From an uncultured virus (IMG/VR IMGVR_UViG_3300002835_000135) (lineage: Duplodnaviria > Heunggongvirae > Uroviricota > Caudoviricetes): a DNA stretch of 64,000 bases. Where the stretch lies: IMG/VR virus record IMGVR_UViG_3300002835_000135; one strand, written 5' to 3'. The position numbers were made by a program, and so were the translations under genes. Below, piece by piece: positions 18,072 through 56,801 of this stretch. The number at the start of each line of letters is the position of its first letter. Position 1 is the stretch's first letter. The notes beneath the pieces were generated by a model. It was not told the DNA's origin. It made no database searches and was given only the letters and a program-made list of their open reading frames with translations.

Positions 18072-18254
18072 ATCAATAAATACTCGGCAAGGCAACTTAG
18101 GTATATATATTGCCGGAAAATTGCCCGAAATATGTTATAATATAATATATGTTTAACACCCCTTATCAGACCTTATTGGGAATACTTTACACATTATTTG
18201 GTTTTTGCTTTACATTTTATAAAAATCGTTTTACCTTTAATAAAAAATAGAGAT

Positions 18255-19037
18255 ATGTCAAATTTTAAACATCTTAGTGACTTAGAAGTCCAGCAAATTA
18301 CATTTGACTGGAGACATCGCGGATTTACTGTTTTAGAGTTATTAACCGAGAATGAATGTGATGAAATAAACGAGGAATTGAATAGGTTAAGAAACGAAAG
18401 AACCGGTACCGAAGCGCCAGACGGTAAAACATGGGGCGAGTGGGACCCATTTGCTTATCCGCATAAACTTTCAGATAAATTGGCGAAACTATTTGCGCAC
18501 CCTAAAGTATTGGAAGCCGTGGAGTTTTTAATGGAAGGTGAAATCCAGGGTATGCAAAGTTGGTGTTATTTTAAACCGCCAGGACAATTAGGTAGAGACC
18601 AACATCAAAATGCGTTTTATACAAAATGTGGTCATAACGAAATTATTAACACTGCATTAGCATTAGATAATCATGACCCAGAAAATGGTGCTGTGTGGAA
18701 CTATGAGGGTTCTCATCGTTTACCAGTATTACCAATTGAGGTGGATGAGGAACGAACAAAAACAAACCCAGCGTTTTGGAGTAATGAAAGAGGTAAACCA
18801 TGTGTAATGCCTGAAGGACACGACTTCCGTAAGGTGGAAGGTTACTTAAGAAAAGGTCAAGTGGTGTTACTGCACTCGCATTGTGTTCACGGATCAGAAG
18901 CAAATAACTCAAATAGAATGAGAAGAAACTTCTTAGGTGGTTATCTTAAAAAAGGCGCTAATTTCTCAAAAGGTGGACATATGAAACGCGAACCAATTGA
19001 TATGTATGAATTAAGAAAAAACCACTGGGGTGAGTAA
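18255..19037 (+). CDS. Phytanoyl-CoA dioxygenase (PhyH)-family 2OG-Fe(II) oxygenase
   Basis: FKPPG, HQN, ALD...ENG...GSH, HGSEAN.S..RR; start moved to MSNF. Confidence 0.85.
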   Translation: MSNFKHLSDLEVQQITFDWRHRGFTVLELLTENECDEINEELNRLRNERTGTEAPDGKTWGEWDPFAYPHKLSDKLAKLFAHPKVLEAVEFLMEGEIQGMQSWCYFKPPGQLGRDQHQNAFYTKCGHNEIINTALALDNHDPENGAVWNYEGSHRLPVLPIEVDEERTKTNPAFWSNERGKPCVMPEGHDFRKVEGYLRKGQVVLLHSHCVHGSEANNSNRMRRNFLGGYLKKGANFSKGGHMKREPIDMYELRKNHWGE

Positions 19038-19074: not shown

Positions 19075-19082
19075 TATCTTTG
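19075..19082 (+). promoter_or_regulatory. Bacteroidota-type -7 promoter element upstream of leader 1
   Basis: TATCTTTG matches TAnnTTTG. Confidence 0.6.
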
Positions 19083-19111: not shown

Positions 19112-19210
19112 ATGAGACAACAAAAACATACAATGTCGTTTATTATCTGCTCAAAATGGGCGGATGAGCGCGCTATGTCCATATGTCTCGATGATACTGA
19201 TGTCGGTTAA
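19112..19210 (+). CDS. Leader peptide 1 (32 aa), putative attenuator of tRNA array 1
   Basis: MRQQKHTMSFIICSKWADERAMSICLDDTDVG; codons match array-1 tRNAs; followed by a terminator. Confidence 0.8.
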   Translation: MRQQKHTMSFIICSKWADERAMSICLDDTDVG

Positions 19211-19235
19211 ATAAAAGTTTAACTTAAAATATTAG

Positions 19236-19266
19236 AAAACCTCGGGACAAAATCTCGGGGTTTTTT
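19236..19266 (+). terminator. Intrinsic terminator between leader 1 and tRNA array 1
   Basis: AAAACCTCGGGA-caaaa-TCTCGGGGTTTT + T run. Confidence 0.85.
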
Positions 19267-19349
19267 GTTTTATATGAGTTTTGGCTGGTTATAATTTTTT
19301 ATACTCAGCCAAAAGTGCCAAAAAATTAACGATTTGGCACAATATAAAT

Positions 19350-19419
19350 GGGCCGGATGTCAATGGCAGACCACCTGATTTGCAATCAGAGTGAAAGGGT
19401 TCGATTCCCTACGTGTCCA
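19350..19419 (+). tRNA. tRNA-Ala(UGC), acceptor stem imperfect
   Basis: Loop TT-TGC-AA, G3:U70, A73, GTTCGA; two acceptor mismatches. Confidence 0.65.
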
Positions 19420-19426
19420 CAGAAAT

Positions 19427-19500
19427 TGAAATATAGCTCAGTTGGTTAGAGCGTCATCCTGATACGGTGAATGTCGATGGTTCGAGTCCATCTATTTCAA
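19427..19500 (+). tRNA. tRNA-Ile(GAU)
   Basis: Cloverleaf, CT-GAT-AC. Confidence 0.9.
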
Positions 19501-19505
19501 CATTT

Positions 19506-19578
19506 GGAACTTTTGTATAGCTGGTGCGTACGTCGGACTGAAAATCCGAAGGAACAAGTTCGATTCTTGTAGGTTCCA
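19506..19578 (+). tRNA. tRNA-Phe(GAA)
   Basis: Cloverleaf, CT-GAA-AA. Confidence 0.9.
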
Positions 19579-19584
19579 CATAAT

Positions 19585-19658
19585 GACCTCGTAGCTCAGT
19601 TGGTTAGAGCACATCACTTTTAATGATGGGGCCGACAGTTCGAATCTGTCCGGGGTCA
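19585..19658 (+). tRNA. tRNA-Lys(UUU)
   Basis: Cloverleaf, CT-TTT-AA. Confidence 0.92.
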
Positions 19659-19663
19659 CACAC

Positions 19664-19734
19664 GCGGGTATGGTGCAACGGCAGCATACGGGTCTCCAAA
19701 ACCCTCGATGGGAGTTCGAATCTCTCTACCCGTG
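19664..19734 (+). tRNA. tRNA-Trp(CCA)
   Basis: Cloverleaf, CT-CCA-AA, G73. Confidence 0.9.
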
Positions 19735-19741
19735 CAAATAA

Positions 19742-19813
19742 GGTCTCTTGGTGTAACGGATAGCACGAAACACTACGGATGTTTTGGTAAAGGTTCGAAT
19801 CCTTTAGAGACCT
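19742..19813 (+). tRNA. tRNA-Arg(ACG)
   Basis: Cloverleaf, CT-ACG-GA. Confidence 0.9.
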
Positions 19814-19868
19814 CGATGTTCACAAAAGTTGCTTGTTCACGGTTCGTGAACAGAGAACAAAAGTGAAC

Positions 19869-19960
19869 AACACCGCCAAAGTCGGAAGTAAAACACCGCC
19901 AAAGTCGGAAGTAAAACACCGCCAAAGTCGGAAGTAAAACACCGCCAAAGTCGGAAGTAA
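19869..19960. repeat. Perfect tandem repeat, 4 x 23 bp
   Basis: AACACCGCCAAAGTCGGAAGTAA x4, no spacers. Confidence 0.95.
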
Positions 19961-19963
19961 TTA

Positions 19964-20034
19964 GTCAGGTTGGCCGAGTGGCTAGGCAGAGGTCTGCAAA
20001 ACCTCGTACATTGGTTCGAATCCAATACCTGACT
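19964..20034 (+). tRNA. tRNA-Cys(GCA)
   Basis: Cloverleaf, CT-GCA-AA, U73. Confidence 0.92.
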
Positions 20035-20036
20035 CT

Positions 20037-20113
20037 GTGATTGATGCTCGTATGGTAGAGCACTAGCTTGTGGCGCTAGAATAAAGCGAGTTCGAATCTC
20101 GTCAATCACCCCA
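20037..20113 (+). tRNA. tRNA-His(GUG)
   Basis: TT-GTG-GC loop, C73, encoded CCA. Confidence 0.88.
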
Positions 20114-20116
20114 TAT

Positions 20117-20184
20117 TGCGGGGAGAATGGTTTCCCACCGGTCTCATAAGCCGAGTGTTCCAGGTTCGACTCCTGGCCCCGCAA
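20117..20184 (+). tRNA. tRNA-Met(CAU) with shortened D arm
   Basis: TGCGGGG/CCCCGCA acceptor, CT-CAT-AA, GTTCGA. Confidence 0.75.
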
Positions 20185-20195
20185 CAAAAATGTAT

Positions 20196-20226
20196 TTTGA
20201 ATTTTAAAAAATTTAATTTATATTTG
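20196..20226 (+). promoter_or_regulatory. Bacteroidota-type promoter inside array 1
   Basis: TTTG-N19-TATATTTG. Confidence 0.6.
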
Positions 20227-20227
20227 T

Positions 20228-20416
20228 ATAACAGGTGACGACGGTGGTGAAACCCCACTGTCTATAAATCTCAACACCCGCCTTGATTCGCGGTATTATA
20301 GCGGTGAGAGTAGAGTTACTACAAGTCGGGAATAATTACCCCAATGACGAAAGTGTAGCCACCAACGTAGGGATATGTTGGTTATGATGTACGAATGGGT
20401 GCGAAAAACTTGTTAT
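20228..20416 (+). ncRNA. Unassigned structured RNA (~190 nt)
   Basis: Closing stem ATAACAGGT/ACTTGTTAT with several internal hairpins; no ORF. Confidence 0.5.
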
Positions 20417-20422
20417 TTTTTT

Positions 20423-20499
20423 TTGATACTAACTCAACGAGGACTTTGTCAACCAGAGCTATGACTCGGATGGTGCAACTTAAGGTGAGTTAGAATCAA
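20423..20499 (+). ncRNA. Unassigned structured RNA (~75 nt)
   Basis: Closing stem TTGATACTAACTCA/TGAGTTAGAATCAA. Confidence 0.4.
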
Positions 20500-20503
20500 T
20501 TTT

Positions 20504-20577
20504 GGATTGTTGGTGAAGTTGGTTATCATGCTACCCTGTCACGGTAGAGTTCACGGGTTCGAGTCCCGTACAGTCCG
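20504..20577 (+). tRNA. tRNA-Asp(GUC)
   Basis: Cloverleaf, CT-GTC-AC, G73. Confidence 0.92.
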
Positions 20578-20580
20578 CAA

Positions 20581-20671
20581 ATCATATCTTCAGGTACCCA
20601 TACAGCGGTGAGATGGGCTAAGTTAGATACAATTCCTCGGAGCTGGGAGTAGAATGTCTGTTTGATGTGAT
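20581..20671 (+). ncRNA. Unassigned structured RNA (~90 nt)
   Basis: Closing stem ATCATATC/GATGTGAT with two internal hairpins. Confidence 0.4.
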
Positions 20672-20676
20672 AATTT

Positions 20677-20762
20677 GGAGAGATGGCAGAGTTGGTCTAT
20701 CGCGTCGGTCTTGAAAACCGAAGTTCTGAAAGGAACCGTGGGTTCGAATCCTACTCTCTCCG
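20677..20762 (+). tRNA. tRNA-Ser(UGA)
   Basis: Long variable arm, CT-TGA-AA, G73. Confidence 0.93.
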
Positions 20763-20963
20763 CACGATTCGTTTAGTCGTCGAATAATATGCCCAATATG
20801 ATGAGAAACGGTTTGACAACCGTATGGGAACGTACATAGACGTATAGGAATAACGTCTGGGTTTATCAGCCCGACCTCGTGAGGACGAAATGATTATTCC
20901 TAACCTGACATTTGTCGGGGACAACTAAGGCACCTGTAAGCTGGATAAATTATGGTGTCACTT

Positions 20964-21035
20964 GCTCAGTTCGACTAAGGGTTAGGTCACCTCCCTTTCA
21001 CGGAGGTAATACGGGTTCGAATCCCGTACTGAGTA
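20964..21035 (+). tRNA. tRNA-Glu(UUC)
   Basis: Cloverleaf, CT-TTC-AC. Confidence 0.9.
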
Positions 21036-21113
21036 CAATCTTTTTATATATTAAACTATTGATTCCCAATATTTTATTTTGTATTTTTACCATATTATTA
21101 ATATTTATAATAT

Positions 21114-21416
21114 ATGATAGATAAAATCACATTATCGTTAATGTTATTTTTTAACACATTAACATCCTCTATCGACCCAAGTTTTTCCGACGAAAGAAAG
21201 ACCTACAATCAAATTAAAAAAGAGATTAAAGCTCTTGAAAGAAAAATTGAATGGGTTGAAGCAACAGATGATAATTACGCTAGCAGGGCCGTCAAAACCA
21301 AAGAAATCACGGACGAGATTACCAAATTGAATGGTAAAATTGTAAAGATTGAGAAGGTTGTTATTTTAAAAGATAAGTGGGCTAAGGAAGATTCCTTAAC
21401 CAAATCAAAAAAATGA
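21114..21416 (+). CDS. Hypothetical coiled-coil protein with N-terminal hydrophobic segment
   Basis: 100-aa ORF after TATTTATA. Confidence 0.6.
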   Translation: MIDKITLSLMLFFNTLTSSIDPSFSDERKTYNQIKKEIKALERKIEWVEATDDNYASRAVKTKEITDEITKLNGKIVKIEKVVILKDKWAKEDSLTKSKK

Positions 21417-21862
21417 AAAAAATTATTTTAATGCTAACGTTACTTTTGGGAGTGGAAGTCGTGGCAAATGGACAAGAGTGGTTTATAACCGCCACTCGAA
21501 AAGGTGGTCCATCAGATGGTTATATAACAGGTGCTTTTATGAAGAAAGGTTGGGGATTCTATGCTGGTCTTCCATATGGCGAATTGGGTGGTCAAAACGG
21601 TGGAATTGTAATTCCCCCTGGTGTCAACACCAAAACAGGAAACGTATCCGATAACATGAAGTTTGGTGTTCTTAGACAAGTAAAAGAGGACAAAGCGATT
21701 GTTGGGTTTGGATTACAACCAACACTTAATGGAAATAAACCTAATTTTCTTATAATGTACAATCCACTTAGACCAAGTAGTGTTATAAATCTATGGACAA
21801 TTGGAAATATAATTGGTGATGATTTCACATTAGGGCTTGGATTATCATATAAAGTGAAATAA
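21413..21862 (+). CDS. Secreted small beta-barrel-like protein
   Basis: Signal peptide; GLGLSYKVK end. Confidence 0.55.
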   Translation: MKKIILMLTLLLGVEVVANGQEWFITATRKGGPSDGYITGAFMKKGWGFYAGLPYGELGGQNGGIVIPPGVNTKTGNVSDNMKFGVLRQVKEDKAIVGFGLQPTLNGNKPNFLIMYNPLRPSSVINLWTIGNIIGDDFTLGLGLSYKVK

Positions 21863-21887
21863 TTTTATTAACTATTGATAATTTTAA

Positions 21888-21895
21888 TATATTTG
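21888..21895 (+). promoter_or_regulatory. Bacteroidota-type -7 promoter element upstream of leader 2
   Basis: TATATTTG. Confidence 0.6.
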
Positions 21896-21913
21896 CATAT
21901 ACTTATTAAAACG

Positions 21914-22021
21914 ATGAAGAATATAAATAACATATCAACGAGTACGAGACCCCTTAATAATGGTAATGGGTATGGTGTGCAACCGTTATGTTACATATGT
22001 TCGGATATCAATAAAGGATAA
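21914..22021 (+). CDS. Leader peptide 2 (35 aa), putative attenuator of tRNA array 2
   Basis: MKNINNISTSTRPLNNGNGYGVQPLCYICSDINKG; codons match array-2 tRNAs; followed by a terminator. Confidence 0.8.
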   Translation: MKNINNISTSTRPLNNGNGYGVQPLCYICSDINKG

Positions 22022-22044
22022 ATAAATTTTTTAAACTAATATCG

Positions 22045-22077
22045 AGACCCGAACAACTAAAAATGTTCGGGTTTTTT
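22045..22077 (+). terminator. Intrinsic terminator between leader 2 and tRNA array 2
   Basis: AGACCCGAACA-actaaaaa-TGTTCGGGTTT + T run. Confidence 0.88.
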
Positions 22078-22097
22078 GTTTTACAATTTATTATCTT

Positions 22098-22123
22098 TAT
22101 ATTTGAAAAGGAGTTCTTTGACA
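22098..22123 (+). promoter_or_regulatory. Possible -7 promoter element plus boxA-like antitermination site
   Basis: TATATTTG then GTTCTTTGACA. Confidence 0.5.
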
Positions 22124-22138
22124 TATTGAGAAAGAAAT

Positions 22139-22223
22139 GCTCGAGTGGTGTAATGGTAGCCACGAGGGACTTAAAATCCCTTGGACAGAAACGTCCGTGC
22201 CGGTTCGAGTCCGGCCTCGAGTA
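22139..22223 (+). tRNA. tRNA-Leu(UAA)
   Basis: Long variable arm, CT-TAA-AA. Confidence 0.93.
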
Positions 22224-22224
22224 C

Positions 22225-22334
22225 AATGTAATGACCTAGTAATAGGTGACGGAACAGACGCTATGTATGAAATGGAAACTTTTGAAGCGCGTACAAAGGT
22301 GCTGATTAGATACAAACCGTACAGACATTACATT
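22225..22334 (+). ncRNA. Unassigned structured RNA (~110 nt)
   Basis: Closing stem AATGTAATG/CATTACATT; internal ACCTA-gtaa-TAGGT hairpin. Confidence 0.45.
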
Positions 22335-22339
22335 AAATT

Positions 22340-22413
22340 GGTTCCATAGCTCAATTGGATAGAGCACAATCCTTCTAAGATTGGGGTTTCAGGTTCGATC
22401 CCTGATGGGATCA
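22340..22413 (+). tRNA. tRNA-Arg(UCU)
   Basis: Cloverleaf, CT-TCT-AA. Confidence 0.92.
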
Positions 22414-22421
22414 CAATAAAT

Positions 22422-22496
22422 AGGGTAATGGACTAATGGCTAAGTCACTTGCTTTGGGAGCAAGGCATCATGGAGGTTCGAGTCCTCTTTACCCTA
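22422..22496 (+). tRNA. tRNA-Pro(UGG)
   Basis: Cloverleaf, TT-TGG-GA. Confidence 0.9.
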
Positions 22497-22501
22497 CAAT
22501 C

Positions 22502-22574
22502 GCTTTCTTAGCTCAGTTGGTAGAGCACATCACTGTTAATGATGGAGTCGGGGGATCGTGACCCTCAGGGAGCG
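22502..22574 (+). tRNA. tRNA-Asn(GUU)
   Basis: Cloverleaf, CT-GTT-AA; variant T loop GATCG. Confidence 0.85.
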
Positions 22575-22581
22575 CAATAAT

Positions 22582-22662
22582 GGCCGAGTGGTGTAATGGG
22601 AGCCACGCTAGTTTTAGGCACTAGTGTCGAAAGACGTGAGAGTTCGAATCTCTCCTTGGTCA
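22582..22662 (+). tRNA. tRNA-Leu(UAG)
   Basis: Variable arm, TT-TAG-GC. Confidence 0.92.
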
Positions 22663-22667
22663 CATAT

Positions 22668-22748
22668 TGGGATATCGCATAGTGGCAATTGCGGCTGACT
22701 GTAAATCAGCTCTCTTTGAGTTCGGCGGTTCGAGTCCGTCTATCCCAA
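22668..22748 (+). tRNA. tRNA-Tyr(GUA)
   Basis: Variable arm, CT-GTA-AA. Confidence 0.92.
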
Positions 22749-22872
22749 CATAAAAATATGAATAGAGAACAATATTTACAAGAAACTTTTCCAACTAAAG
22801 ACGGAAAAACTTACATCCAATCATTAGATGAATTTAATTCAAAAAAAGAGGAAGATGTAAAAGAAGATACAT

Positions 22873-22986
22873 GCCGGAGTGGCGGAATAAACAACGATGC
22901 TGACGAGTAATGTTGAGACGTGTCGCATTCTAGAAGATGAGTACTCCGAAAGGACCTCGTGGAGGTAATCAATCCTTTCTCCGGCA
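22873..22986 (+). ncRNA. Enlarged tRNA-Leu-like RNA with D-loop hairpin insert and broken anticodon arm
   Basis: GCCGGAG/CTCCGGC-A acceptor, TGGCGGAA..AGACG D arm, variable hairpin, non-canonical T loop. Confidence 0.6.
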
Positions 22987-23041
22987 CCTATTAATCGTCA
23001 ATATAGACGATAACAGATTTTATCGTTAGATTAAACGATAT

Positions 23042-23115
23042 GGACTTATAGCTCAGATGGTTAGAGCAGGTCGCTCATAACGACAAGGTCACAGGTTCGA
23101 ATCCTGTTTGGTCCA
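23042..23115 (+). tRNA. tRNA-Ile2(CAU), lysidine type reading AUA
   Basis: CT-CAT-AA; GGACTTA-TAGCTCAG...GGTCC-A body resembles bacterial Ile2 rather than Met. Confidence 0.75.
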
Positions 23116-23120
23116 CACAT

Positions 23121-23193
23121 AGAAGATTAGCTCAGTTGGGAGAGCGCTTGTTTTACATGCAAGATGTCACTGGTTCGATTCCGGTATCTTCTA
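23121..23193 (+). tRNA. tRNA-Val(UAC)
   Basis: Cloverleaf, TT-TAC-AT. Confidence 0.9.
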
Positions 23194-23199
23194 CAATAA

Positions 23200-23271
23200 G
23201 CTCCTAAAGCATTGCAGGCGATGCGCATGACTTGTAATCATGATAACTTGGTTCGATTCCGAGTGGGAGCT
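23200..23271 (+). tRNA. tRNA-Thr(UGU)
   Basis: Cloverleaf, CT-TGT-AA. Confidence 0.88.
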
Positions 23272-23325
23272 CATGGGACTCCGATGGAAGTCCGCAAGAA
23301 GAATAGATGTTTTTCATCCATCAAA

Positions 23326-23398
23326 GCGAGTATAGTATAATGGCTTATTATGCCTTCCTTCCAAGTAGGATATGTCAGTTCGATTCTGACTACTCGCT
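23326..23398 (+). tRNA. tRNA-Gly(UCC)
   Basis: Cloverleaf, CT-TCC-AA, U73. Confidence 0.9.
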
Positions 23399-23461
23399 CA
23401 ATCATCAAAGAGACCGCTAAATCGAGTTAGTGAAAATCTACATTCTCAATGATGATTAAAT

Positions 23462-23532
23462 TGTCCTTTGGTGTAACGGTAGCACAACTGTTTTTGGTGC
23501 AGTTTGTTTAGGTTCGAATCCTAGAGGGACAA
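23462..23532 (+). tRNA. tRNA-Gln(UUG)
   Basis: U1:A72, TT-TTG-GT. Confidence 0.9.
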
Positions 23533-23536
23533 CAAT

Positions 23537-23622
23537 GGAGAGTTACCCAAGTTGGTGAAGGGGGCAGTTTGCTAAACTGTTAGGTCGTTTGCGGCGCAAG
23601 GGTTCGAGTCCCTTACTCTCCG
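23537..23622 (+). tRNA. tRNA-Ser(GCU)
   Basis: Long variable arm, TT-GCT-AA, G73. Confidence 0.92.
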
Positions 23623-23637
23623 CAGTAAAAGTACCCT

Positions 23638-24243: not shown

Positions 24244-24414
24244 TGTCAGGTGTTGAAATTTGATTGGTACGCGTATCAATCTAGGCAGACAAGCGCTCCT
24301 GTCTCGAGCGTGGTGACAAAGAAATAGGTAATTAATATGGGGTAGACCACCAAGCCGGCCGGCAGATGTTAATTACTGAATCTCACCGTGGTGGTTCGAG
24401 TCCATCCCTGACAG
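24244..24414 (+). ncRNA. Giant (171 nt) tRNA-like RNA with expanded D loop and variable region
   Basis: TGTCAGG/CCTGACA-G acceptor; CGCTC-ctgtctc-GAGCG arm; GGTGG-TTCGAGT-CCATC T arm. Confidence 0.7.
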
Positions 24415-26075: not shown

Positions 26076-26085
26076 TTTAAAAATA

Positions 26086-26885
26086 TTGGCCGCCTATGGT
26101 CAACAAAATAAACCATGAAAGTGGGATAAAGTGGTCTGGTTTGGTTAAATCAGATTGCGGTTTCAGCAATGGAACTTGAGTAGGCAAACAGAATATCATT
26201 GAACCTTAATTACTGAGGGTAACACTGTAGGGAAAGTGGTTCGATGATCAAGCAATCCGAGTTGTTTGGTTGAGGTGGGAACACCAATAAGAATAATCTG
26301 TAGAGTTATTACAAGAAGTAGGATTTCCAATCTTACAATTGTGTGATTCAATATGATGGGAATCTTAAAACCGAAAGGTATGGTGAAGTACGAGTGGTGT
26401 CGTTATCATCCTTAATTAAACTCTACCAAGGGTTTAGTTTTGAAGGGGTCCAAAAATATGGTAGCAGGGATGTTACAGAGAGTAGTTTAGTATCGGGTCG
26501 TTCAAAAGATGACTTGGCTGGCAGATGGGCCGCTACTTTCCAAATTCGGAACCAACTCAATTGTTAATTCAGGTTTAACAACTTAAAAAACAAGGAAAAG
26601 TGCCCATCAGTCGTTGGAGACAGGTGACTACACAGTCGAGAGGGGTTCTCGGCCATGAAGGGTCCCAAGCCCAACATGATTTTTAAGAAAGTTCTCTAAT
26701 CCCGCAAGGATGCGTTGGGGTGGCAACCTCGAAGAGTAATGAGTATTAAAAGAGTATTCGACGACTAAAGGATTGGTTAATCTAATTGACCGTCACTGAT
26801 TGGTACTACTCAAAAGGTAGTGGATAAGAGAAGAAAAGATAATGTCTCTAAAGTCAATCGCTAAATGGTGTAATCTCAGCCCTTT
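26086..26885 (+). ncRNA. Large structured ncRNA, probably GOLLD
   Basis: ~800 nt without a credible ORF, many GNRA-capped hairpins, tRNA-array context; 3' end ...GTAATCTCAG recalled from GOLLD RNAs. Confidence 0.7.
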
Positions 26886-28765: not shown

Positions 28766-29176
28766 GGGGGTGCCTGGCATTGATTTCAGGTATCGGGAAT
28801 AAATGGCACGTAGTCAGAATTCATCTATGACTTAAATCTACGGTGAAACAATTCAAACGGCAACGTTTACAACAACATGGAAATTGCAGGTTTACTTGCA
28901 ACTTCCAAAGTAGCTGCCTAACCAAGTTAGGTACTACAATCGGGTCGACGAGCATGTAACCTAGGAACAGAAGCTCTTAAGGTGTGATTTCTACCCAAAA
29001 AGAAATAAACGGTCTTGTTCAGAGGGCTACCGTAACAAAAGTGAACTCGACACAGTTGTTGGTAACGATGTCAAAATAGGAACCAAATATTTGTCAGTTG
29101 TGAACTAATTGAATAAACGTGTAGTCATTTATTGTTGAGCAGGAAAGACACGGGTTCGAGTCCCGTCACCTCCACC
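28766..29176 (+). ncRNA. ssrA: tmRNA; predicted tag (A)GNVYNNMEIAGLLATSKVAA
   Basis: GGGGGTG/CACCTCC-A acceptor with G3:U, T arm GGGTTCGAGTCCC, internal ORF 28859-28921 ending AA-stop. Confidence 0.92.
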
Positions 29177-29178
29177 TT

Positions 29179-54047: not shown

Positions 54048-55902
54048 AGAAATAATTAATGGATTATTAAACGAAGCAACACCTGATGAAATATATATAA
54101 AATATTATTCAGATATTGACCCAACAACATTTTATAGGGTTGTTACGTTAGATCCAAAAACGCAAACTAGTTTTGATAAAATAACTAGAATAGGTAAGTA
54201 CGCAAAAGTGTTATTGAAACTTCATAAGTTAAATCAATTAAAAAGTGAAGATTACCCAAAGGCAACTGAATATTTAAATTACGCATACAATCATCAAATC
54301 CCGATTGTTGACACAACGATTAATAGTTTAGGTGATTTATACAACGCAATCAAACATAAAATAGCTAATGCAAGTCAACCATTAAATACCATATTGGAAT
54401 TATTGACTAAAGAAGAATATGAGTTCGTACTTAACGGTGAAAATTGGTTAATCTACATACCTAAAACAGAAAAAGCCGCGGCGTACATTGGCGTTAACAC
54501 TCAATGGTGTACCACTTGGGGTGAATTCTCGTTAAACCCATCATACAAAGATAGATCATCTCATTTTAACTCACATAATAGAAAGGGATCACTTTACATT
54601 ATAATAAATAAAAAGGATGAAAGTGATAAGTACCAATTTCATTTTGAGAGCAAACAATTCATGGACCCCGCAGATAGAAGAATTGATACTGCGTCTTTCT
54701 TAGATAAGAATCAAGAAATTGAAAGTTTCTTTTTCCCCGCATTATACAATGAAAATGCAACAATAAGACAATTCGATGATGCTATTGCTAAATCATTTGT
54801 TTTAAATGGTAATAAAACAAATTTATTAATTTCAAAATATATTGATGTTAGCATTGACACGCCAAGCGACGCCAATCGGTTAGCACAATTAATCGTTAAA
54901 ACACCTTCCACATGGCGCGAAAGACCAGAATTTATTGGCATTATAAATGACGATTCACTTGATGATTTAATTATTACAAATGAACACATTGAATTTGATT
55001 TAAAAAACCCAGGCGGTGAATTAAATAAGGTCGAGGATTTAATTAATTCATATGAACGTGCAGTTGAATATTCATATGAAAATGTAAAAGATAACGCCTT
55101 TTATGATAGAGAATATTCCACCGAAGCCATAAAAGAAATGTTGGGGGAATATTATGATCAAGAAAAAGATTTAATGGTTAAGTGGTTTGGTAAAACCGCA
55201 AAAACTAAAGAGTTATTTTTGCACTGGTATTCTAAACATATTCTAGATAATGATAAGGTTTTTGAAAAATATGTTGACGTATATTCCGACGCAACATCAA
55301 CCGAATTAGAAAATGCATATCGTTCTGAAATCGACGATATTAAAAAATACATTGATTTTGATGGTTATAGCGGTGGAAATAAAACTGTAAAAGTTTCTAA
55401 AGTTTATTTCATCTTATTCATATTAAGAAAAAATATTAGTACAATTGGTGAAGGTTATCGACATGAATATGTTGAGGATGTTATTAATCTATATATTGAT
55501 GAATACAATATCCCAACCGATTATGACGAAGAACCTGAATATGATTACATATACCCAGTATTAAAAGATATGGAGGGTATTTTCAGTGATGTGTTAGGTG
55601 ATTTAGCACCAAGTGAAGACGATGATGAACACAATGAATGTCTTAAGAAGAAAAAAGAACTTCAAGATATCCTTGGAGAATATTTTGACGAAAATTTTAA
55701 ATTTGAAAACGATAATGTATATGTTGAGGTTAAAAGACCTTGGCTAGAGAATTTTGATTGTGAAAAAGGTATTGAGATTGGTTTTAAAAACAAACAAAAA
55801 AACACGTCATACTTTGGATATGTTCAAGTAGAGAATCTTGTAAAATACATTACAAATTATGATTTGTTTGAATCGGTATTAAAAATCAAGAACCGTCTTT
55901 AA
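54037..55902 (+). CDS. Large hypothetical protein
   Basis: 621 aa; TQWCTT, LYIII, KYQFHF motifs. Confidence 0.6.
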   Translation: MKFREIINGLLNEATPDEIYIKYYSDIDPTTFYRVVTLDPKTQTSFDKITRIGKYAKVLLKLHKLNQLKSEDYPKATEYLNYAYNHQIPIVDTTINSLGDLYNAIKHKIANASQPLNTILELLTKEEYEFVLNGENWLIYIPKTEKAAAYIGVNTQWCTTWGEFSLNPSYKDRSSHFNSHNRKGSLYIIINKKDESDKYQFHFESKQFMDPADRRIDTASFLDKNQEIESFFFPALYNENATIRQFDDAIAKSFVLNGNKTNLLISKYIDVSIDTPSDANRLAQLIVKTPSTWRERPEFIGIINDDSLDDLIITNEHIEFDLKNPGGELNKVEDLINSYERAVEYSYENVKDNAFYDREYSTEAIKEMLGEYYDQEKDLMVKWFGKTAKTKELFLHWYSKHILDNDKVFEKYVDVYSDATSTELENAYRSEIDDIKKYIDFDGYSGGNKTVKVSKVYFILFILRKNISTIGEGYRHEYVEDVINLYIDEYNIPTDYDEEPEYDYIYPVLKDMEGIFSDVLGDLAPSEDDDEHNECLKKKKELQDILGEYFDENFKFENDNVYVEVKRPWLENFDCEKGIEIGFKNKQKNTSYFGYVQVENLVKYITNYDLFESVLKIKNRL

Positions 55903-56801
55903 ACCTGGAATATATTAATATCATATTCTGGGCGATTCATTTTAAATTCTTTGAAACGAATTATCTGGTCATCCATGTCGTCAAAAATATTAATAGTTTT
56001 AATTGACGGGTTATTCTTAAGAATTTCTAAAATCCTATCTGGTTTTTCTCTCCCATCATTTTTAAAATCATAGCTATCAAATTTCGGGTAGTACGGCGCC
56101 AATTTTTCTTTGACCACTTTTTCAAACTTTGCAATTCTATTTGTCATTATAACATTTAAGGAATTTGGAATGCTTGAATATTCAATGTACAATTCCCTAT
56201 TCTTTTCAATAGGTTTCACGTGAAACGGCGCTAAACTATCTAATTGACCCCACCACCCTCTATGTGGCCATTCACCGCCAGTCATTTCTTTATACATCTC
56301 CTTTCCTAGTTCTGGCATCGGGGAGTCCATTAATGTTCCGTCAAAATCAAAAACGTTTAACACGGTAGAATTCTTATCCGATTTAAATGATGGTTTAAAC
56401 ATCACCTCTTCAATCCTACCTTTTACCGTAAAAGTTTCTTCTAGTGGAACCCATTCGCTAATCTCGTTAGAATCCTTCGGTTTAGCCCCGTTTAAGGCGT
56501 TAATTGCCACGGTGATATGTGGAATAGCATTCTGTGATAAAGGTGTCTCTACACCCACCGCAATGGCTTTATCCGACTTACCTAGTTTAGTTACCTGTAG
56601 AGTAACTGTGTGTCCAATCTTTTCTTTAAGATTTTCGGGTAATTCACCCATTTTAATGGTCATATGATGACATATAACTTTCCAGTCATTAGGAATCGCT
56701 AAGTGGTTAAGAATACGCTCTCTAGAGCCGTTATCTAAAACAACTGCGCTGTACGATACCTTATAATCGGTATTTTCTCTAATAATGTCAAAAAATTTCA
56801 T
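55899..56801 (-). CDS. 2H phosphoesterase + HAD phosphatase fusion (RNA end-healing type)
   Basis: HMT and HIT 2H motifs; FDFDGTL...WW, MTNR, FDD. Confidence 0.75.
   Translation of the reverse strand: MKFFDIIRENTDYKVSYSAVVLDNGSRERILNHLAIPNDWKVICHHMTIKMGELPENLKEKIGHTVTLQVTKLGKSDKAIAVGVETPLSQNAIPHITVAINALNGAKPKDSNEISEWVPLEETFTVKGRIEEVMFKPSFKSDKNSTVLNVFDFDGTLMDSPMPELGKEMYKEMTGGEWPHRGWWGQLDSLAPFHVKPIEKNRELYIEYSSIPNSLNVIMTNRIAKFEKVVKEKLAPYYPKFDSYDFKNDGREKPDRILEILKNNPSIKTINIFDDMDDQIIRFKEFKMNRPEYDINIFQV

Follow-up and report, generated by a model that had tools for sequence, protein, structure and literature searches.

The window considered here, the whole stretch of 64,000 nucleotides analysed from an uncultured virus of the class Caudoviricetes (IMG/VR record IMGVR_UViG_3300002835_000135), carries 24 tRNA genes, all on the + strand at 19350–23623, in two blocks that are separated by two protein genes. 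Each block stands behind a promoter-like motif, a short leader open reading frame (ORF) and a predicted intrinsic terminator, and most codons of each leader are read by tRNAs of its own block. An attenuator matched to its block of phage tRNA genes, which is a variant of a known mechanism, looks real after the analysis described below. The features concerned are:

19075..19082, + strand: promoter −7 motif TAnnTTTG (Bacteroidota type) of leader 1
19112..19210, + strand: leader ORF 1, 32 codons, with codons for all 12 block-1 tRNAs
19184..19191, + strand: antiterminator strand 1, codons 25–27 (predicted fold −18.8 kcal/mol, z −4.5)
19233..19270, + strand: intrinsic terminator 1 (predicted)
19350..21036, + strand: tRNA block 1, 12 genes (ARAGORN and Rfam), starting at Ala-TGC 19350, Ile-GAT 19427, Phe 19506, Lys-TTT 19585, Trp 19664, Arg-ACG 19742, Cys 19964, His 20037, Met-CAT 20117, Asp 20504, Ser-TGA 20677 and Glu-TTC 20964
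20117..20184, + strand: the single tRNA-Met of block 1, with an initiator-like acceptor stem, paired U1-A72 and a short D arm
21888..21895, + strand: promoter −7 motif of leader 2
21914..22021, + strand: leader ORF 2, 35 codons, with codons for all 12 block-2 tRNAs
21998..22004, + strand: antiterminator strand 2, codons 29–31, its other partner being codons 2–4 (−12.1 kcal/mol, z −3.1)
22044..22078, + strand: intrinsic terminator 2 (predicted)
22098..22121, + strand: second promoter-like motif and a boxA-like element behind terminator 2
22139..23623, + strand: tRNA block 2, 12 genes (ARAGORN and Rfam), starting at Leu-TAA 22139, Arg-TCT 22340, Pro-TGG 22422, Asn 22502, Leu-TAG 22582, Tyr 22668, Ile2-CAT 23042, Val-TAC 23121, Thr-TGT 23200, Gly-TCC 23326, Gln-TTG 23462 and Ser-GCT 23537

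ARAGORN found 22 tRNA genes in the window and Rfam RF00005, at its gathering score, found 24, the extra calls being Ala-TGC (19350–19419, 29.7 bits) and Met-CAT (20117–20184, 33.4 bits). The set of 24 tRNAs split 12+12 that a first-pass annotation had described is borne out by the two programs together, as are its coverage of all 20 amino acids with two genes each for Arg, Leu, Ser and Ile, and the exclusive use of a U34 tRNA in all seven four-fold boxes other than that of Arg (TGC, TCC, TGG, TGT, TAC, TAG and TGA). The statement that no anticodon is repeated holds at the level of decoding, where 24 distinct families are present if the CAT tRNA at 23042 is lysidine-modified, but not at the level of the DNA, where CAT occurs twice (20117 and 23042). 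When 24 genes were drawn at random from the 39 tRNA genes (34 anticodons) of a Bacteroidota genome (G008), all 24 fell into different decoding families in 4 of 500,000 trials, so the non-redundancy is not due to chance. The Ala-TGC gene is atypical in that G3-U70 is kept and the acceptor stem has two mismatches; a similar gene, which is without annotation there, heads a block of phage phi38:1. Between Arg-ACG and Cys (19868–19960) a 23-nt unit occurs four times, and the near-identical locus L001 is 46 nt shorter here.

Leader 1 contains TCN codons for Ser, ATY codons for Ile, CGC for Arg and an internal ATG; leader 2 contains AGT for Ser, ATA for Ile, AGA for Arg and both CTT and TTA for Leu, and has no internal ATG. 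For the split amino acids Ser, Ile and Arg, the leader codons thus match the isoacceptor of the leader's own block. Counted from codon 2 to five codons before the antiterminator strand, 36 of the 42 leader codons in the window are read by the leader's own block and 6 by the other; none of 100,000 random 12+12 partitions reached 36 (mean, 21.0), which supports attenuator-like leaders matched to each block. The leaders cover 23 of the 24 tRNA types, or all 24 if a ribosome margin of three codons is used. Four off-block codons lie at leader positions 2–4, in or beside the stretch with which the antiterminator strand pairs; an upstream strand of this kind was predicted in 31 of 38 leaders (25 loci).

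Both leaders end about 25 nt 5′ of the intrinsic terminators. In computed pairings, antiterminator strand 1 binds the 5′ arm of the terminator when exposed and codons 1–3 when the ribosome is absent. Constrained folding gave three states. If the ribosome is absent, codons at the start of the leader occupy the antiterminator strand and a terminator results. When a ribosome is held at codon 15, the 5′ arm of the terminator is taken up by the antiterminator strand while its 3′ arm is still to be made. Once the ribosome is at the stop codon, the terminator forms. These three mutually exclusive folds match the his-attenuator scheme. TAnnTTTG lies 34–40 nt 5′ of leader 1 in 10 of 13 two-block loci, and the motif alone is common (58 matches on the + strand of the window). 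A scan for sigma-70 promoters found 39 sites against 39.1 expected, which is no signal, and none of the Rfam leader families reached its gathering score (the best, His_leader, scored 21.5 of 49 bits, E 7.6).

The phage is large, because a near-identical IMG/VR contig (96.5–97.8% identity to the window) is 286,845 bases long and the genomes of relatives reach 310–334 kb. The host is probably a member of the Bacteroidota, since 21 of 24 cellular matches to an RNase H-like gene beside the cluster bear Bacteroidota names and TAnnTTTG motifs, which we take to be the −7 consensus of Bacteroidota-type promoters, precede both leaders. The comparison with relatives covers 25 loci (the window and 24 others) chosen from 87 that were fetched and 2 that were refetched, with near-duplicates excluded, the whole cluster present and a leader detectable. 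Duplicates, truncated clusters and clusters of 2–8 tRNAs were left out, as were L038, whose second leader was not found, and L095, where none was. The position of the antiterminator strand was set by motif in nine leaders. About 40 doubtful tRNA calls were struck by eye, most of them made only at a relaxed threshold and some above it, among them the second Lys-TTT, second Ser-TGA and a long-armed Met-CAT of L094 and the Asp-ATC and second Pro of L060/L065; duplicate tRNAs are undercounted because of this removal.

In all 12 two-block relatives, the shuffle test gave at most 1 in 10,000. Their partitions are 13+13 (3 loci), 14+12 (5), 15+11, 12+11, 9+13 and 8+13; none is 12+12, which therefore does not survive as a fixed number. 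L094 has its Gln gene in block 1, and its leader 2 is free of Gln codons. In L030, L036, L037 and L042, which form one clade, block 1 includes Thr and Val, leader 2 is without a Thr codon and leader 1 has gained Val. A single leader (38–53 codons, 19–20 amino acids) precedes 22–26 tRNAs in 12 loci with three gene orders; L051 and L055 carry exactly the 24 tRNA types of the window behind one leader, and the one leader of L045 covers 23 of 23 types.

Three blocks are present in Cellulophaga phages phi4:1, phi17:2 and phi38:1 (NC_021788, NC_021798 and NC_021796). The three units of phi4:1 (7+10+7) have leaders that are 22, 27 and 32 codons long, in which 38 of 45 codons are read by the own block and all 23 elongator types are covered (0 of 100,000 shuffles); with a five-codon margin, the counts are 32 of 39 codons and 18 of 23 types. 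phi4:1 resembles the window in having 24 tRNAs, 23 of the window types, a single Met tRNA and a promoter, leader and terminator before each block, and differs in that its blocks number three and have other membership, its Met tRNA is of the initiator type and stands behind a leader without an internal ATG. The three-block layout recurs in phi38:1 (10+7+6 in the stretch covered). The leaders carry no regulatory annotation; the tRNA passages of the phi38:1 transcriptome paper do not mention leaders (PMC5335546). The sensing window grows with block load, from 11–15 codons in leaders of three-block loci to 18–24 in those of two and 26–40 where there is one.

The reading that we favour, at a probability of roughly 0.7, is that the locus is a spare tRNA kit with one tRNA per decoding family, the blocks of which are each under ribosome-mediated transcription attenuation. 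Host RNA polymerase would start at the Bacteroidota-type promoter and a ribosome would translate the short leader. If the ribosome reads through or never loads, the terminator would form and the block would be mostly off; if it stalls 5′ of the antiterminator strand because a matching tRNA is scarce or has been cut, the antiterminator would form and the block would be transcribed. Each leader would in this way work as an OR gate whose inputs are the tRNAs of the block behind it, and the kit would most likely top up host tRNAs lost in infection rather than replace the whole pool. The analysis shows the gene content, the match between codons and blocks, conservation, the variable partitions and, in silico, the alternative folds; from these we infer leader translation, regulation by tRNA supply and destruction of host tRNAs as the trigger. 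A wider proposal, to which we give a little less than even odds, is that Bacteroidota phages with genomes of 70 kb to 300 kb share a modular tRNA-rescue cassette, in which a stalled ribosome would report removed tRNAs, only the matching block would be transcribed and splitting would give complete, block-specific sensing.

The passages of PMC11805395 on hisL describe a short leader ORF, an antiterminator that excludes an intrinsic terminator and termination by default without a ribosome, all of which have counterparts in the window. Unlike hisL, the window leaders would sense 12 tRNAs to isoacceptor level, with 1–5 scattered codons each. Further leader-peptide attenuators include trpL, pheM-pheST and the multivalent thrL and ilvL. 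The known leaders control biosynthesis or synthetase genes, whereas those of the window stand before tRNA genes and are in a phage. The attenuator traits found are a short ORF between promoter and gene (38 leaders, 25 loci), codon enrichment, a terminator and a mutually exclusive antiterminator (computed). A tandem run of control codons for one to three amino acids is absent, and the window leaders are for this reason regarded as a variant and not as a member of the his/trp/thr/ilv family.

The closest functional precedent is the Anabaena trn operon, which, like other L-arrays, holds about two dozen spare tRNA genes and is induced when translation is impaired, according to the parts of PMC8421152 that deal with it. 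That operon is controlled by the repressor TrcR, whereas control in the window appears to act in cis through the ribosome, and the two systems also differ in phylum and layout. Neither 'attenuat' nor 'leader' occurs in PMC8421152. In passages on phage tRNAs and anticodon nucleases, the likely purpose of the tRNAs is restoration of those cut by host defence, and these passages contain no sensor that switches phage tRNAs on (PMC10264068; PMC13015707). No published account of leader-peptide attenuation of phage tRNA genes was found among the matches listed from the open-licence main texts of PMC and bioRxiv.

Several points weigh against the attenuation reading. In the computed equilibrium fold, the finished terminator is more stable than the antiterminator even when a ribosome is stalled, which requires a kinetic switch, and sensitivity may be low, with 1–5 scattered test codons per tRNA and no long runs as in hisL. 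The motif behind terminator 2 could drive block 2 without attenuation (a promoter-like motif is present there in 9 of 13 two-block loci and the boxA-like element in 11 of 13), and promoter-like motifs inside several one-leader arrays could bypass the switch. Codons that look like relics are present: leader 1 of the window has Thr at codon 7 and Gln at codons 3–4 though these tRNAs are in block 2; in L006, Thr has moved, yet leader 2 retains a Thr codon; L024 has a Val codon without a Val tRNA; leader 2 of the L030 group retains Val at codon 5; L015/L016 have a Phe codon without a Phe tRNA; and L031–L035 retain leader 2 with 4 tRNAs, leaving two amino-acid sets unmatched. A leader–terminator scan of stretches of T5, S-SKS1, Gundel_1 and DAC19 found none, and a tRNA cluster therefore does not need such a unit, although the scan was strict and missed one unit of phi17:2 and one of phi38:1, the latter found by eye. 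RNA contigs from four sequencing runs come from relatives only, span their tRNAs and spacers and do not resolve starts, ends or read-through; they barely cover the leaders, which counts neither for nor against these. Six sequencing runs contained 5–7% of the words of the window.

Some of these points would suit leaders that are general sensors of translation speed or coupling, or infection timers, with codon matching as a by-product and internal promoters driving the blocks. The few codons per tRNA, the internal promoter-like motifs, the relic codons and the persistence of leader 2 in L031–L035 after most tRNAs have gone are in keeping with such leaders. A general sensor, however, has no need for codons specific to block and isoacceptor, and matching is found in three different partitions with shuffle counts of 0–1 in 10,000–100,000, which makes this explanation quite unlikely.

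The tRNA set itself can be compared with a minimal superwobble set described for tobacco plastids, which has 25 species including the initiator (PMC3499367). The window has 24 of these 25, the canonical initiator being absent from it, so that the near-minimal, non-redundant, U34-only composition first reported stands for the window. Shared with the plastid set, as far as the relevant parts of that paper describe it, are the single U34 tRNA in seven four-fold boxes and the pairs Arg-ACG and Arg-TCT, Ile-GAT and Ile2-CAT, Leu-TAA and Leu-TAG, and Ser-TGA and Ser-GCT (PMC3499367). One tRNA per two-fold box, Arg-ACG, Trp, Ile-GAT and a putative Ile2-CAT are present, and separate initiator and elongator Met tRNAs are not. 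Unlike the plastid set, that of the window has one Met tRNA and would act inside a host with a fuller set and modification enzymes. Mycoplasma and organelle sets are also comparable, though animal-mitochondrial ones have a changed code and 22 tRNAs.

Composition alone is a known and ordinary pattern that is not peculiar to this phage, because 22 of the 24 types occur in T5, and phi4:1 combines 23 of them with an initiator. T5 (NC_005859; 25 annotated tRNA genes) is alike in its clustered, co-oriented, near-complete set with interspersed stable and tRNA-like RNAs, and unlike in lacking Leu-TAA and Arg-ACG, adding fMet, Ser-GGA and a Gln-CTG pseudogene, and having many promoters. Among the 25 loci, 14 tRNA types are in all and the remaining ten in 20–24; the commonest extra is Gly-GCC (16 loci), followed by Ile-TAT (7) and an in-array initiator (5). 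G001, the nearest record (72.8 kb, 22% complete), carries these same 24 tRNAs and no other above cut-off. All 26 tRNA matches of G002 (324 kb, 97% complete) are inside the cluster, G005 has none above cut-off outside it, and one or more strong tRNAs lie outside the cluster in each of G003, G004 and G006.

The first-pass annotation went further and proposed that the phage can replace almost the whole host tRNA pool, the two arrays reflecting the number of codon types, about 12, that one attenuator can sense. A superwobbling replacement set would agree with the 24 of 25 minimal species, the 14 types found in 25 of 25 loci and the presence of tmRNA. Replacement of nearly the whole pool is not upheld: the canonical initiator is missing, Gly-GCC is added in 16 of 25 loci, and 2352 of 14,518 sense codons (16%) in 45 long ORFs of the window are pyrimidine-ending codons of U34-only boxes, which require U34 superwobble. 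The commonest Gly, Val and Leu-CTN codons of the phage end in T and are among this 16%; that U34 is nevertheless kept for these speaks for coverage rather than codon tuning. In plastids, the defect caused by losing Gly-GCC was among the strongest (PMC3499367). Each of the seven boxes has a G34 isoacceptor in the Bacteroidota genome, so that an unmodified U34 cannot be taken for granted in such a host. Leader codons for these boxes mostly end in purines (purine-/pyrimidine-ending in two-block loci: Thr 41/5, Ser-TCN 34/1, Val 20/4; in one-block loci: Thr 32/11, Ser-TCN 15/0, Val 15/0; homologous positions that are not independent), Leu-CTN codons are CTT in 12 of 14 cases and Gly codons are mixed. 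Taken together, the codons lean toward a phage that monitors and restores U34 isoacceptors rather than one that has full autonomy.

As for the sensing capacity of a leader, its hard form is refuted by the 12 loci in which one leader serves 22–26 tRNAs, L045 with 23 of 23 covered, and block sizes range from 6 to 26 genes. A soft trade-off is what stands: with a three-codon margin, two leaders cover 317 of 318 types and one leader 265 of 285 (309 of 318 and 253 of 285 with a five-codon margin), three leaders cover 23 of 23 in phi4:1, and the sensing windows of single leaders are all at most 40 codons. This contrast shrinks since at least three of the one-leader misses are doubtful Met calls, possibly initiators, and others are preceded by internal promoter motifs. 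In a tree of a 153-residue neighbour protein (43 rows; root weak), all two-block loci form one clade (100/99) and one-block loci are on deeper branches, so that the trade-off is a single independent contrast, and one origin cannot establish the cause of the split. The number 12+12 is incidental, and block number is an evolved layout and not a capacity limit. Replacement of the pool by a set divided for capacity is thus about as improbable as the general sensor.

Compensation for the codon use of an AT-rich phage genome, with completeness as a side effect of acquiring a whole cassette, is highly improbable even though U34 fits the top codon for Ala, Pro, Thr, Ser, Lys, Glu, Gln, Leu-TTA and Arg-AGA and reduced clusters show the full set to be dispensable in some lineages (at least four origins on the tree, mostly keeping Arg-TCT, Leu-TAA and Ile2; 10 kb each side), since Trp, Cys, His and Arg-ACG (97 CGN of 14,518 codons) are kept in 25 of 25 full loci, the Gly, Val and Leu-CTN anticodons do not fit the top codon, and leaders that list every tRNA are left unexplained.

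The window has one Met tRNA and not a pair of initiator and elongator, and no other is found in it or in G001. Bacterial initiators normally have a 1–72 mismatch according to the relevant passages (PMC3413147), a weak 1–72 pair being given for 1.5% of them (PMC1635315), and a U1-A72 pair is described, in the part concerned, as likely to raise binding to EF-Tu while still allowing initiation (PMC11822699). The same U1-A72 gene is followed about 130 nt behind by a C1-A72 mismatch initiator in L004, L008, L010 and L030, and L036 and L038 have a second Met tRNA of the C1-A72 initiator class with another first base. Because relatives have the U1-A72 gene together with a separate initiator, and every leader 1 has an internal ATG codon, the window tRNA is best read as a putative elongator, the initiator being lost or elsewhere. 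It is possible that the one U1-A72 tRNA serves in both initiation and elongation; that it does both, so that the 24 genes and tmRNA would be a self-sufficient decoding set, we consider unlikely. A scan of viral contigs for the initiator-tRNA pattern matched at least 118 stretches and was uninformative on this phage. L051 (1483) and L055 (2061) have a Met tRNA of the window type with C1-A72 outside the array, and the lineage seems to switch Met tRNA between initiator and elongator at position 1. The CAT tRNA at 23042 is presumably a lysidine-modified Ile2, since it resembles a third CAT class in relatives and in the Bacteroidota genome, and leader 2 has ATA and no internal ATG.

Unusual anticodons occur in relatives. 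A34 is present in two-fold boxes in L012/L013/L015 (Asn-ATT), L043/L044 (Ser-ACT) and L060/L061/L063/L065 (Asp-ATC), which could be a matter of misreading or of anticodon nuclease evasion. L094 (G003) has tRNAs with a long variable arm and Lys-TTT, Gln-TTG and Met-CAT anticodons at 1002, 2494 and 2823; the long-armed CAT tRNA, with its body of the Ser/Leu type, might cause mistranslation.

Other RNAs lie between and behind the tRNA genes:

20229..20414, + strand: structured spacer RNA, 186 nt, with a closing stem (11 aligned copies; no Rfam family)
22873..22988, + strand: tRNA-shaped RNA just before Ile2 (10 aligned copies)
24244..24414, + strand: tRNA-shaped RNA, 171 nt (29 aligned copies; no Rfam family)
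26085..26882, + strand: GOLLD RNA (Rfam match 26478–26882 and conserved upstream half)
28766..29177, + strand: tmRNA (83.9 bits)

The 20229 RNA is multibranched and has its own promoter-like motif at 20219; in a relative, an RNA contig joins 20414 back to 20229, possibly as a circular form or an assembly artefact. The 22873 RNA has a Leu-like acceptor and D arm and an inserted hairpin, recalls the annotated tRNA-like RNAs of T5, and has a weak match, below gathering score, to Rfam manA (21.9 of 55.2 bits). It was rejected as an amber suppressor or third Leu tRNA: the central loop varies among the 10 copies and a canonical anticodon arm is absent. The 24244 RNA has a near-invariant GTCT loop and a long conserved extra arm, is retained even in relatives with only 5–8 tRNAs, and has contigs with 1–4 differences in two river metatranscriptome runs; an 'Asn-GTT' call by relaxed ARAGORN at about 24336 is part of it. 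Neither RNA is counted as a tRNA because the loops are not canonical anticodon loops. Spacers 20582–20672, 20768–20958, 22228–22336, 23276–23322 and 23402–23458 are conserved in 3–10 related loci, and these five segments are probably small RNAs of their own, since some adjoin different tRNAs in relatives. GOLLD and tmRNA lie within 6 kb behind the tRNA blocks. In 36 loci the 390 nt 5′ of the GOLLD match are conserved, and the RNA contigs of relatives, which also span tRNAs, spacer RNAs, GOLLD and tmRNA, cover them deeply; this upstream part fits the less conserved 5′ half of an 800-nt GOLLD. Among the neighbouring genes are one for a PhyH-family dioxygenase (18198–19037) before leader 1, the RNase H-like gene (PF04308; 24445–24906) behind block 2, which stands beside the tRNA cluster in most relatives, and one on the − strand (55899–56801) whose protein matches tRNA-ligase phosphodiesterase and HAD RNA-repair domains and whose predicted function would fit counter-defence against tRNA cleavage.

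The question of why phages carry tRNAs is decades old, as passages of PMC10264068 set out. A leader that lists the codons of its own block is a genomic record of what the phage monitors, and the leader codon lists argue for replenishment on demand over static codon tuning. The series of one, two and three blocks provides a natural experiment on the number of inputs to a single attenuator; if the attenuation reading is true, splitting trades a single sensor for all amino acids for complete, block-specific sensing. The same layout in phi4:1, phi17:2 and phi38:1 of Cellulophaga baltica makes the mechanism testable in cultured phages.

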